From Alphaproteobacteria bacterium (GTDB lineage Bacteria > Pseudomonadota > Alphaproteobacteria > GCA-2731375): DNA of 64,000 nt. Every line of letters begins with the position of its first letter. Within the stretch, counting starts at the first letter, position 1. Under the pieces are notes generated by a model. That model worked only from the letters and a program-made list of their open reading frames with translations. It was not told where the DNA came from and searched no databases. The DNA is taken from assembly GCA_965225945.1 (NCBI GenBank), contig CBDDBZ010000036.1, positions 128,001 to 192,000 on the forward strand, read 5' to 3'. A program made the translations under genes and the position numbers. Of this stretch, positions 12,354-16,367 are shown in pieces.

Positions 12354-13145
12354 ATGTCATCGGTGGAAAACATTCAAGATCAGGAGGCGCTGGCCTCCGC
12401 CGCCTCGAGCGAGGTGATCATCCACATCGACGCGATGAACAAGTGGTTCGGACAGTTTCATGTCCTGAAGGACATCAACCTCTCGATCCACAAGGGGGAG
12501 CGGATCGTGATCTGCGGACCGTCGGGCTCCGGCAAGTCGACGCTGATCCGTTGCATGAACCGTCTGGAGGAACACCAGAAGGGTGACATCATCATCGACG
12601 GCGTGGCCCTCGACAACAACCTCAAGAACATCGACCAGATCCGCAGCGAAGTGGGCATGGTGTTCCAGTCCTTCAACCTCTTCCCTCATCTCTCGGTGCT
12701 GCAGAACTGCACGCTCGCGCTGATCTGGGTCCGCAAGATGGCGAAGTCGGAGGCGGAAGAGCTGGCGATGGAGTATCTCACCCGGGTCCGCATCCCCGAG
12801 CAGGCGGACAAGTACCCGGGGCAGCTCTCCGGCGGCCAGCAGCAGCGCGTCGCGATCGCCCGCGCGCTGTGCATGCGGCCTCGGATCATGCTGTTCGACG
12901 AGCCGACCTCGGCGCTCGATCCCGAGATGATCGCCGAGGTGCTGGAGGTGATGATCGAGCTGGCGGCGACCGGCATGACCATGCTCGTCGTCACCCACGA
13001 GATGGGCTTCGCCAACCGGGTCGCCGACCGGGTGATCTTCATGGACGAAGGCGTGATCGTGGAGCAGAACACGCCCCGGGAATTCTTCGAGAATCCCAAG
13101 AGCGAACGCACCAAGCTGTTCCTGAGCCAGATCCTGGCCCACTGA
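12354..13145 (+). CDS. aapP: Amino acid ABC transporter ATP-binding protein
   Basis: [45 protein letters not shown]. Confidence 0.93.
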
Positions 13146-13156
13146 GGCCATCTTCG

Positions 13157-13928
13157 CCGGGAGGATAAAGGGACACGGGAGGATACTTAGGGACTTTTCA
13201 AGTTAAGTATTGTGTCCGGGAGGATCCTTGCCTATCCGGGAGGATCACCCAGGGACCGGGACTATAAAGTGGCACCGGGAGGATAAAGGGACCGGGAGGT
13301 AAAGGGACTCGGTGAGGATCGAAGGGACCGGGAGGATATCTCCGGGATGCCGAGCAGGGACTCGGGACGGCATTGTAGCGACCTTTTAGGCGAGGACTTT
13401 AGGGACCGTGGTGGAAATCCTAATCATTGAGACCGGGATTTGGCATAAAGGGACCGGGAGCATAAAGGGACCGTCACTTCATTGAAATTTATCTGAAATC
13501 GGAGGATGAACGGGACCGATGGAATATTCCAGGAAACCGGGAGGCTTCATTGAATTGTAGGATCGAGTGCCGGGATTATTCACAAATAGACTCTGTGAAC
13601 TGGTTTTCAAGTTCGACTCAATACGTCATATGAAGTAACCGGATTGAGGATAAACGTTCTTGCGTGTCGCTTCGTCTTCGCTGCGACTCAAAACGCGCAG
13701 GAGACTAACAGGCGCGGACGGGGACCGCAACGATAAAGGGCCAGCGCGTCGCTTTCTTCGACCGGCTCAGAGGATAAAGGGACAGCAGGAGGATAAAGGG
13801 ACGTCCCCCGAATAAGTACGTGACTTAAACTCCTTCGGTTTTCAGAACAATCAAGAATTAGCCGGAAGTATTGTGTCCAAGGAGACACACTACATATAGT
13901 GGGTGTGGGTTTATCCTTTATCCTCCGG
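13157..13928. repeat. Degenerate tandem array of a ~17-bp unit CCGGGAGGATAAAGGGA with inverted terminal copy and REP-like hairpins
   Basis: Exact units at 13157 and 13275; variants at 13176, 13216, 13236, 13256, 13292, 13310, 13328, 13454, ~13770 and ~13788; inverted copy CCTTTATCCTCCGG at 13915-13928; AAGTATTGTGTCC at 13205 and 13866; visibly lower GC; no credible ORF. Confidence 0.85.
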
Positions 13929-13932
13929 TCCG

Positions 13933-15189
13933 TCAGACTGCGCGGACCAGCGCGTGGCGCTTGCGTCCGGCGCTGAGCTTGATCACGCCCTCGCCGTCCA
14001 GATCCCCGAGCGTGACCTCATGCAATTCGTCCCGCACCACCACGTCGTCGAGGCGGGCGCCACCCCCCTTGATCAGCCGCCGGGCCTCCGCGTTGGAAGC
14101 GCAGAGTTTGGCCTCCGCCAACAGGCGGAAGACGGCGATGCCCTCGGCCAGCGCGGCGCGGGGGACCTCGATCGTCGCCAGCTCTTGGCCCCGGCTGCCT
14201 TCCTCGAAGGTGCGCCGCGCCGTCTCCTCGGCCGCCGCCGCCGCGTCGGCCCCGTGTGCCAGCCCCGTCGCCGCCGTCGCCAGCAGCTTCTTGGCGTCGT
14301 TGATCTCCGCGCCGTCCAGCGCTTCCAGCCGGGCGATCTCGTCCCCCGCCAGCTCGGTGAAGAGGCGGAGGAAGCGGCCGACGTCGCCGTCCTCCGTATT
14401 GCGCCAGAATTGCCAGTAGTCGTAGGCCGAGAGCATGGTGTCGTCGAGCCAGACCGCGCCTTCGGCCGTCTTGCCCATCTTCTGGCCGGACGCGGTGGTG
14501 ATCAGCGCCGTGGTGAGGCCGAAGAGGGCGGTGCCGTCGACCCGGCGGGCGAGATCCACCCCACCCACGATATTTCCCCACTGGTCCGAGCCGCCCATTT
14601 GCAGCCGGCAAGCGTGGCGGCGGCTCAGCTCCACGAAGTCGTAGGCCTGCAGGATCATGTAGTTGAACTCGAGAAAGCTCAGCGGCTGCTCGCGCTCGAG
14701 GCGCAACTTCACGCTGTCGAAGCCCAGCATCCGGTTGACCGAGAAGTGGCGCCCGTAGTCGCGAAGAAAGGCGATGTATTCGAGGCTGTCGAGCCACACG
14801 GCGTTGTCGAGCATGATGGCGTCGCTCGGCCCGTCGCCGAAGTCGAGGAAGCGCTCGAAGACCGCCTTGATGCCGTCCATGTTGCGCGCGATGTCGGCCT
14901 CGCTCAGCAGCCGGCGCTGTTCGTCCTTGCCGGAGGGATCGCCCACCTTGGTGGTGCCGCCGCCCATCAGCACGATCGGCTTGTGGCCGCAGCGTTGCAA
15001 ATGACGCAGCATCATGATCGAGACCAGAGAGCCGACATGCAGGCTCGGCGCCGTCAAGTCGTAGCCGATATAGGCCACGACGCGCTCCTTCGCGGCCAAT
15101 GCGTCCAGCGCGTCCAGGTCGGTGCATTGGTGCAGGTAGCCGCGTTCGACCATGGTCTGGACGAATTCGGAGGCGTGGGCTCGGCTCAT
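13933..15189 (-). CDS. tyrS: Tyrosine--tRNA ligase
   Basis: [16 protein letters not shown] (HIGH-like), [29 protein letters not shown]-terminal S4-like KLSAGRKRH. Confidence 0.97.
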
Positions 15190-15235
15190 GGCGCTTCTGG
15201 CTTTACTGTCGCGTGGTTTCGGGCGCGCCATATGT

Positions 15236-15253
15236 TGGATTCTATCCACTAGC
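15236..15253. promoter_or_regulatory. 18-bp palindromic motif in the tyrS/anmK divergent region
   Basis: TGGATTCTATCCACTAGC is the exact reverse complement of 56591-56608; function unknown. Confidence 0.45.
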
Positions 15254-15284
15254 ATGAATGATGGCGATGTCTCAACGCCGACGG

Positions 15285-16367
15285 ATGACAATGGACATGA
15301 TAACCGCGATCGGATTGATGAGCGGCACCTCGCTCGACGGGGTCGACGTCGCCCTGATCCGCACCGAGGGCGAGCGGGTGGCGGCCGACGGGCCGTGGCG
15401 CTCCTACCCTTACGAGGCGGCGACGCGGGAGCTTGTTCGGAGCGTGCTCGGCGGCCGGGGCGACGTCGCCGTCGCGGCGCGGGCGGTGACCGAGGCGCAC
15501 GAGACGGCGGTCCGGACGTTCCTCGCGGAGACCGGGATCGAGGCCGCGGCAATCGCCGTCGTCGGCTTTCACGGCCAGACGATCCTGCATGAACCGGAGC
15601 AAGGCCGGACCTGGCAGATCGGCGACGGCGCGGCGCTGGCCCGGGGAATTGGCATCGACGTCGTATCCGATTTTCGCGCCGCCGACGTGGCGGCGGGCGG
15701 GGAGGGGGCGCCGCTGGCGCCGGTCTATCACCGCGCGCTGGCCCGTGATCTCCAACGGCCCCTCGCGGTATTGAACATCGGCGGCGTCGCCAACGTCACC
15801 TACATCGGGGAACACGATGAACTGATTGCCTTCGACACCGGCCCCGGTAACGCCTTGATCGACGATTGGGTCCGCCGCCGGCGGGCCGAGGCGATGGACG
15901 CCGACGGCCGGCTCGCGGCGCGAGGCACGGTCGAGCGGGCGGCGTTGGCGAGGCTTCTGGCCGATCCCTATTTCGCCAGGCCGGCGCCCAAGTCGCTCGA
16001 CCGCGACCACTTCGACGCCGGCCCGATCGAGGGGCTCGGAGATGCCGACGGGGCGGCGACGCTGGCCGCCTTCACGATCGCCGCCGCGGCGCGCGCGCGC
16101 GGGCACTTGCCCGAGCCGCCCGCGCGCTGGCTCGTCACCGGTGGGGGACGGCACAATGGTTTTCTCATGGCCGGGTTGCGCGCGGCGCTGGGCGTTGAGG
16201 TCGTGCCGGTGGAAGCCGTCGGCTGGCGCGGCGATGCGCTTGAAGCGGAGGCCTTCGCCTTCCTCGCCGTCCGTTCTCTGCGTGGTCTGCCGCTGAGCTT
16301 TCCCGCCACCACGGGCGTCGAGCGGCCGATGCCCGGCGGGCGGCATCATCCCGCGACGGGTGGATGA
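15285..16367 (+). CDS. anmK: Anhydro-N-acetylmuramic acid kinase
   Basis: [65 protein letters not shown]; start uncertain (15285-15297). Confidence 0.95.

Follow-up and report, generated by a model that had tools for sequence, protein, structure and literature searches.

The 787-bp gap at positions 13146-13932 of a 64-kb stretch of alphaproteobacterial DNA (hereafter the window) lies between the gene of an ABC-transporter ATPase and tyrS. An earlier note, made from the sequence alone, had described it as a locus of short repeats parted by captured foreign segments. We find that it is not a free-standing repeat/spacer array: the supposed spacers are colinear blocks of one miniature inverted-repeat transposable element (MITE), here called MITE A, and the repeats are pieces of a palindromic repeat, here called P. 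Our preferred reading, to which we assign a probability of about 0.6, is that the gap holds a palindrome derived from a TIRtron, with re-copied arms, and an IS1595-type MITE, the printed sequence probably being a consensus blend of two alleles. The odd repeat/spacer picture would then dissolve into two known kinds of mobile DNA and a probable blend.

Native sequence makes up 15 bp of the gap and the insert 772 bp (13157-13928; Table 1). In two genomes of the same genus, the gap between aapP and tyrS measures 30 bp (G002) and 9 bp (G001), and the insert is therefore specific to the lineage of the window. As the earlier note had stated, it lies between two core genes, is richer in AT than its surroundings (GC content of 0.465-0.58 vs. 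0.59-0.76 in the flanks), and has no credible open reading frame (ORF), the longest within 13146-13932 comprising 66 aa. Its opening motif and inverted closing form were also described correctly, i.e., CCGGGAGGATAAAGGGACAC at 13157-13176 and ...TTTATCCTTTATCCTCCGG with 13928 as the last base. Rfam returned no match at the gathering score for window positions 12800-14300 and two matches overall, both with E > 2.

We labeled the 772 inserted bases by 7-mers, and 744 of them were covered by three templates, namely MITE A, the outer arm of P, and the core of P. The MITE alone accounts for 464 bases, the MITE as well as arm or P for 147, and the arm unit or P alone for 133, leaving 28 bases with no template. 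With unit and P shuffled (200 trials), the arm- or P-only count averaged 6.7 and never exceeded 71, compared to the 133 observed. Compared with its own genome, the locus matches dozens of places at ~90% along 13335-13762, 13818-13866, and 13875-13910. These stretches had been taken for unique sequence of 10-60 bp, but belong to a 757-bp repeat. The inter-repeat segments are thus ordered blocks of one resident MITE, which contradicts the proposed uptake of short foreign segments into a hypervariable repeat/spacer locus.

With a length of 757 bp, MITE A ends in 44-bp terminal inverted repeats (TIRs) and is bordered by 8-bp target-site duplications (TSDs). The genome contains 65 full-length copies, whose rounded identity to the reference copy is 100% for 46, 99% for 10, and 80-98% for 9 of them. 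It codes for no transposase and only for a 102-aa ORF with an LRV_2 domain (E = 2.6e-08), and over its first 127 nt it is similar (76%) to the ends of 1.1-1.66-kb elements encoding DDE_Tnp_IS1595 proteins. MITE A therefore shows what is expected of an IS1595-family MITE, i.e., TIRs, a TSD, many copies, no transposase, and ends in common with autonomous insertion sequences (ISs). Copies in the genome of the window (G000, whose contigs are denoted by C and a number) are located, for instance, at C39:242212-242968 and C36:59804-60542, and related copies were seen in G002, which is of the same genus, at 86% in G029, which belongs to another family, and at the ends of contigs of G017.

A global alignment of the window copy placed 532 of 800 aligned bases in letter-perfect colinear blocks and 268 nt, flanks included, in patches. 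Thirteen of the 16 patches of at least 3 nt replace MITE bases, often by a like length (32 for 24, 14 for 12, 11 for 14, 9 for 5, and 7 for 5). Nine further patches of 1-2 nt each make GGGAC or GAC, and no unrelated substitution is present. Ordinary insertion would not remove like lengths of sequence, and ordinary divergence would leave random substitutions.

The repeat motif is far above chance, as GGAGGATAAAGGGAC (15-mer, up to three mismatches) has seven matches in the 64-kb window, all within the locus (six on the + and one on the - strand), against an expectation of 0.83, and none of 100 shuffles reached seven. The earlier count of 15-20 tightly tandem copies, however, was overstated. Only six same-strand units are near-complete, and the others are irregularly spaced fragments (16 GGGAC and 15 CGGGA). 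No constant 17-nt phase of the GGGAC positions was found at the locus, and Tandem Repeats Finder called 13251-13338 only (3.6-4.9 copies, 76-84% matches). The 17-nt unit corresponds exactly to the outer arm of P subfamily GGATAAAGGGAC, from the outermost CCGG through the first GGGA(C) of the core.

The locus contains 31 GGG vs. 2 CCC tracts, and its single-base patches all make GGGAC or GAC. Both would fit a selected G- or GGA-rich element of the + strand, either a protein-sponge RNA of the CsrB/RsmZ type or a cluster of G-quadruplexes. We regard such an element as highly improbable: the 96.55%-complete genome yielded no CsrA gene, the locus has no Rfam match, the insert is absent from the same gap in the two same-genus genomes, and ~25 motif-creating changes with zero neutral ones are unlike selection on ordinary mutations. 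Some potential for G-quadruplexes, as suggested earlier, does exist, but it is weak (no canonical motif at loops of ≤ 7 nt and four at loops of ≤ 12 nt).

P is a palindromic repeat of ~60 bp with 13 intact copies in the genome, in line with the earlier view that the ends of the locus are the two arms of one palindrome of the repetitive extragenic palindromic (REP) or REP doublet (REPIN) type. Matches to the 13-mer GGACACAATACTT or its complement number 27 across the genome, and most of them form inverted pairs 27-32 nt apart. Intact copies fold as perfect DNA hairpins of 29-32 bp (-32 to -36 kcal/mol), and the P core of the window reaches -9.4 kcal/mol vs. -36.3 and -31.9 kcal/mol for intact copies. 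In a collection of species-representative genomes, the exact 28-nt core, searched as two 14-mers with a 4-20-nt centre, is present in at least 117 loci. Among the matches listed, the records are labeled as Alpha- and Gammaproteobacteria, Omnitrophota, Elusimicrobia, Desulfofustis, Saccharibacteria, Actinomycetes, Planctomycetales, and others, the GC content of the loci (L029-L145) ranges from 0.35 to 0.66, and both the centre (2-24 nt) and the outer arm vary from copy to copy. Five P-bearing genomes (G041-G045) hold 9-14 copies each, compared to 0 for a reversed-pattern control. This identity across phyla is unusual for REP-like repeats and suggests horizontal spread of the TIRtron.

Copies of P are intergenic and lie beside unrelated housekeeping genes. 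A specific neighbor gene was rejected, as the neighbors comprise Maf, L20, DUF302, a response regulator, citrate synthase, and others. The viral contig collection yielded only one P locus, and we dismissed P as a phage element. P is also not a MITE of an IS66-family IS (TIR GTAACTGCC.., 8-bp TSD, ~20 identical copies): the arms around this IS at C16 and C30 come from insertion of the IS into a P, and six other copies have unrelated flanks. In these two places (C16:2040-3960 and C30:144500-147100), the IS lies within a longer P-like element (TSD TACTTATC), and the C30 version of the IS is itself broken by MITE A, so that elements are nested three deep. Mobilization of P by an IS1595-family transposase found no support, the gene being present in three of the five P-bearing genomes and none of five fetched loci having P arms at its ends. 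Rfam returned only generic hairpin (miRNA-precursor) matches below the gathering score for ten clean P loci. A string search with P-core 11-mers alone found no paper naming the palindrome, the matches listed being unrelated by title and mostly from animal or cell biology.

P is linked to transposases of the Y1 (HUH) type. All five P-bearing genomes hold Y1_Tnp genes, and four of the 15 Y1 loci fetched are associated with P: its arms flank the Y1 gene in L181 (786 nt apart) and L182 (719 nt apart), and P lies within ~70 nt of the gene in L178 and L176. The P-type proteins are mutually 54-69% identical and have kept the HUH and Tyr motifs, with NHxH and RYVExNP invariant in the alignment. Their sole NCBIfam match is REP_Tyr_transpos (NF047646), with 72.0, 72.8, and 78.7 bits under the cut-off of 80. 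A class sample of 201 genomes contained 19 with a homologue at E ≤ 1e-40. An exact inverted repeat of at least 12 nt with GG[GT]GACA[CG] surrounds the gene at 18 of the 24 intact homologue loci, and a P-type arm is present at two of the 24.

Passages of Di Nocera et al. (2013; PMC3733652) describe TIRtrons, or TIRYT, as genes resembling those of REP-associated tyrosine transposases (RAYTs), flanked by TIRs that share GGGGWSAS, with TIR families occurring as singles, dimers, and clusters. As P arms flank Y1 genes and the inverted repeats with GG[GT]GACA[CG] fit these passages, P can be assigned to a TIRtron. The Y1 gene lies within TIRs, P carries the GGGGWSAS-type motif GGGGACAC, relatives carry GGTGACAG, GGGACAG, and GGGGTCAG, and TIRs are dispersed without the gene (13 intact dimers in the genome of the window). 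P is a gene-less derivative of a TIRtron, namely a perfect palindrome of two inverted TIRs (arm ..GGATAAAGGGACACAATACTTA..).

The idea of a link to HUH or RAYT enzymes holds insofar as the same arms flank RAYT-like Y1 genes elsewhere, but no intact P-type transposase was found in the genome of the window, all its P-type homologues being broken (Table 1). Three intact RAYT-like Y1 genes of 220-223 aa are only 35-38% identical to the P type and have different flanks (..AAAGTAGAATGACCCCTTTTTC.., GTAG-containing (AAAGTAG); by eye, 14 of 22 positions agree with the P arm). Around broken Y1 genes at C26:155440-156400 and C36:103230-104220, the latter ~25 kb upstream of the window, we also observed a second TIRtron type with the arm GGATTACGGTGACAGTGCACT.

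Amplification of one arm, as proposed earlier, proved to be a recurrent trait of the family. Among the matches listed, 23 of 115 usable P loci of other genomes have at least two outer-arm copies on at least one side, with a maximum of four (12-mer, ≤ 1 mismatch), and two arm copies are present at three of 18 transposase loci. Furthermore, 5-6 partial arm units adjoin the Y1 gene in L178, and ~7 irregular units lie beside a broken Y1 gene at C26:155474-155570, ~1.2 kb from the contig end, with three more on its other side. Arm arrays are present in independent short-read assemblies. The arm copies stop 4-8 nt into the GGGGACA/GGTGACA motif, and we infer that nicking and rejoining at the boundary between arm and core re-copies the arm. 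If the partial arm copies are scars of this kind, they show where this family of enzymes cleaves.

These findings bear on the model of the earlier note, in which a trans-acting RAYT amplifies a REP-type arm and captures foreign segments as a hypervariable repeat/spacer record. The ends of the locus are indeed REP-type arms, the genome holds Y1 genes (three intact and at least four broken), and arm amplification is a family trait. We nevertheless give the model almost no credence. Its spacers are ordered pieces of the resident 757-bp MITE, only 28 of 772 bases stay unexplained, and the 115 P loci elsewhere (among the matches listed) hold arm copies without captured segments. In addition, a search of the 96.55%-complete genome for Cas1 (PF01867) gave no hit.

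The assembly keeps alternative versions of the same DNA. C16 (19,317 nt) equals C30:142458-162227 at 99.9% minus one 757-nt MITE, C19:1-16578 equals C33:190567-208722 minus two MITEs, and C1:36497-51795 overlaps with C15:1-15295 over 15.3 kb. These redundant contig pairs are 99.6-99.9% identical, and across three pairs we counted 43 mismatches as well as 36 single-base indels, 22 of which fall in homopolymers. CheckM gave a contamination of 5.58% at a completeness of 96.55%. The sample is a mixed population, and the consensus is noisy. The genome is also rich in ISs, with ~59 copies of a ~1,020-bp IS1595-family IS (TIR GGCTCAATTCGTGAATTGTATGCGTCAC) and ~20 of the IS66-family IS, and a ~2.5-kb and a ~4.1-kb repeat are likewise found on many contigs.

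Several other MITE A copies of the assembly are mosaics. At C28:77645-78527, ~12 MITE blocks alternate with 12 blocks of the unrelated ~1,020-bp IS1595-family IS at an offset of 38-51 nt throughout, and the IS tiles 222 nt, compared to a maximum of 83 with the IS shuffled. C29:77295-78170 is of the same kind (102 nt vs. a shuffled maximum of 65), and in the mosaic copy at C24:106405-107285 the IS tiles 57 nt vs. a shuffled maximum of 72, which by tiling does not identify it as the partner. At C38:162500-164300, the left half of the MITE contains a second version of the downstream flank (109 nt, 94.5%), which is the outcome expected when reads of an empty site are laid over a draft of the filled site. 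Perfect MITE blocks with many deletions were seen at C9:37498-37865 and C36:314353-314692. The mosaic copies at C28, C29, C24, C38, C9, and C36:314k are probably consensus blends and should be distrusted.

To our knowledge, no cellular process overlays two unrelated sequences in register, as an alignment-based consensus of two alleles does. The interleaving printed at the window locus is probably an artifact as well, because its patches replace MITE sequence, other MITE copies are blended with other partners, and the sample is mixed. On this analysis, the window locus is itself most likely a consensus blend.

We infer the following course of events. Two mobile elements lie in a gap of natively ~15 bp, namely P and, inserted at or beside its right arm, MITE A. 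A Y1 transposase would nick the single-stranded hairpin DNA near the boundary of arm and core and rejoin it, and repeated or slipped rejoining could re-copy the outer arm into short same-strand arrays. A consensus step would then merge, in register, reads of a MITE-bearing and a MITE-free allele from the mixed sample, the latter probably holding an expanded left-arm array of ~10 units. The resulting print would alternate MITE blocks, read as spacers, with arm pieces, read as repeats. The MITE allele, i.e., P with MITE A at its right arm, would account for the core at 13170-13217, the MITE from 13226 onward, and the duplicated TTTATCC at the right end. The array of the MITE-free allele would yield the unit-rich stretch 13157-13345 when anchored on the left. 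Anchored on the right, it would yield the two further units (13769-13802) and, beyond them, the second core arm (13866-13878) and the right arm (13910-13928). We hold this two-allele reading of the layout loosely.

Table 1. Positions of the inserted elements, their flanking genes, and the Y1 genes of the same genome.
Feature	Position	Strand	Remarks
Left outer arm of P, entering first core bases (GGGACAC)	13157..13176	+	GGATAAAGGGAC subfamily arm at five other genome places
Richest stretch of 17-nt arm units, ~9-10 full or partial, over P core and MITE left end	13157..13345	+	
P core palindrome (GGGACAC..ATACTTA..TTAAGTATTGTGTCC), broken by GGGAGG and GGGAC pieces	13170..13217	.	Comparison with intact copies
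Window copy of MITE A (consensus positions 1-738)	13226..13910	+	30-odd colinear perfect blocks; last 19 nt give way to P right arm
Two further arm units (AGAGGATAAAGGGAC, GGAGGATAAAGGGAC) in place of 14 and 51 nt of MITE	13769..13802	+	
Second copy of core right arm AAGTATTGTGTCC, in place of 38 MITE nt	13866..13878	.	
Right outer arm of P (TTTATCC TTTATCCTCCGG), inverted vs. left arm	13910..13928	-	
Native intergenic bases left of insert	13146..13156	.	Together with 13929-13932 the 15-bp native gap
ABC-transporter ATPase gene (aapP-like), left flank	12354..13145	+	263-aa ORF; PF00005, E 9.4e-39
tyrS, right flank	open frame 13933..15552	-	PF00579, E 8.4e-72; catalytic domain is residues 155-449 of frame
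P-type Y1 gene split by MITE A	C11:16832-18257		67-68% identical to L182 protein; split at residue 88
P-type homologue, stopped or frameshifted	C36:103383-104053		
P-type homologue, stopped or frameshifted	C26:155594-156245		
P-type homologue, truncated fragment	C30:15920-16120		
Intact RAYT-like genes L001-L003	C22:27676-28332, C35:366192-366848, C37:31749-32360		~733-bp repeated unit

Several points weigh against this account. The case for a blend here is drawn from parallels at other loci of this assembly. An allele with many arm units was not found in the public runs, genomes, and metagenome contigs examined, and the ~10 units assumed here would form the largest array seen, others comprising 2-7 units. 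Where the transposase nicks is deduced solely from the break points of the arm copies, 4-8 nt into GGGGACA. The assembly is not generally poor either, its unique sequence being accurate, with 973 flank bases identical to independent contigs. These contigs stem from public sequencing runs, in none of which the share of locus words exceeded 0.12. One X3 contig is identical to the window along 12980-13176, as are contigs of X1 and X4 along 13915-14500, but the flank contigs of X1, X3, and X4 run 13 or 17 letters further in a way that does not fit the insert version of the window. The X3 contig passes the first unit and continues without stopping there, at a depth of only ~3x.

In the four public runs compared along the locus, the bins 13240-13303 and 13752-13815 had no cover except for 3.27 in one X4 bin; a gap in cover does not count as evidence. 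The MITE parts were represented in consensus form only. A 19-mer spanning two units had no match in genome_contigs and five in metagenome contigs, all of them single chance matches in low-GC contigs, with the genome of the window possibly outside the scan.

The public contigs also speak for a variant in which no molecule carries an arm array. There would only be the canonical P with or without the MITE, and the extra units would be consensus echoes on a MITE-bearing draft. The contigs join both flanks to a seemingly single arm and leave the window sequence within 13-17 nt, the presence/absence polymorphism of the MITE is directly shown by the redundant contigs, and the units at 13157 and 13788 sit where left- and right-anchored copies of one short P would fall. 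On the other hand, the left arm occurs only once per read, so that six near-complete same-strand units are hard to obtain, other blends of this assembly copy their second template once, in order, and without echoes, and arm arrays are real in independent short-read assemblies. We consider the echo variant unlikely, though it deserves to be kept in view.

More doubtful is that the locus is real as printed and arose by replication or repair switching between the MITE and a hairpin arm, i.e., microhomology-mediated copy choice, perhaps started by a Y1 nick. The patch edges share 2-5 nt with the arm unit (GGA, GAC, CGG), the density of patches drops with distance from P, and the adjoining long perfect palindrome could stall replication forks. 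Y1 HUH enzymes, as described in passages of PMC3733652, cleave single strands and join them again. The same interleaving, however, recurs with an unrelated IS at constant offset and with the downstream flank of the MITE itself, and the matching Y1 genes of the genome are all broken. The window-specific junctions were not found in the four public runs, the same caveat on missing cover applying. Slightly less credible still is the broader version, in which arm-templated copy-choice rewriting, possibly started by a Y1 nick, overwrites its neighbor in register and has also made the mosaics elsewhere. If true, this would represent a new type of templated hypermutation in a bacterium.

The check applied here is advisable for comparable finds in long-read assemblies of mixed samples: an odd stretch is tiled with the repeats of its own genome, and redundant contigs are then looked for. 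Regarding other contacts between the two elements, a P with two extra 15-nt right-arm units is directly followed by a MITE A end at C28:76605-76700, and the target duplication of a further MITE copy nearby (C28:77645-79200), GGATAAA(G), equals the arm box of P. P-arm sequence may be a preferred target of MITE A, at the window locus too.

[quoted passage not shown] Unit length and spacing are irregular, however, and the spacers form one colinear MITE; together with the lack of a detectable Cas1 mentioned above, this agrees with the earlier note, which had excluded CRISPR. MITE A matches other IS1595-family MITEs in its TIRs, 8-bp target duplications, high copy number, and missing transposase, and its LRV_2 ORF is an unusual cargo for a MITE. 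P shares with the TIRtrons/TIRYT of PMC3733652 the Y1 gene in long inverted repeats, the GGGGWSAS-type motif (GGGGACAC in P), and moderately abundant gene-less copies. Two of its features are absent from the cited passages of that paper, namely the letter-identical core in at least 117 loci, from genomes whose labels span many phyla, and the partial arm copies ending just after GGGGACA.

REPIN-RAYT systems, as portrayed in passages of Bertels and Rainey (2011; PMC3116915), consist of extragenic, multi-copy inverted doublets with clusters beside a Y1 gene, for which mobilization in trans has been proposed. P is likewise an extragenic, multi-copy, hairpin-forming inverted doublet with clusters adjoining a Y1 gene. 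It differs from the classical GTAG type of REP, as its arms lack the GTAG tag, its stems are perfect and much longer, and the proteins fall under the NF047646 cut-off. Moreover, REPIN clusters in those passages are tandem whole REPINs with flanking DNA, whereas here one arm is repeated, and RAYTs are single-copy, whereas P-type Y1 genes lie within their own TIRs in the manner of an IS. The usual picture of REPIN-RAYT systems, as drawn in part of the RAREFAN preprint, is one of vertical, lineage-specific inheritance, and a P core shared across phyla is at odds with it.

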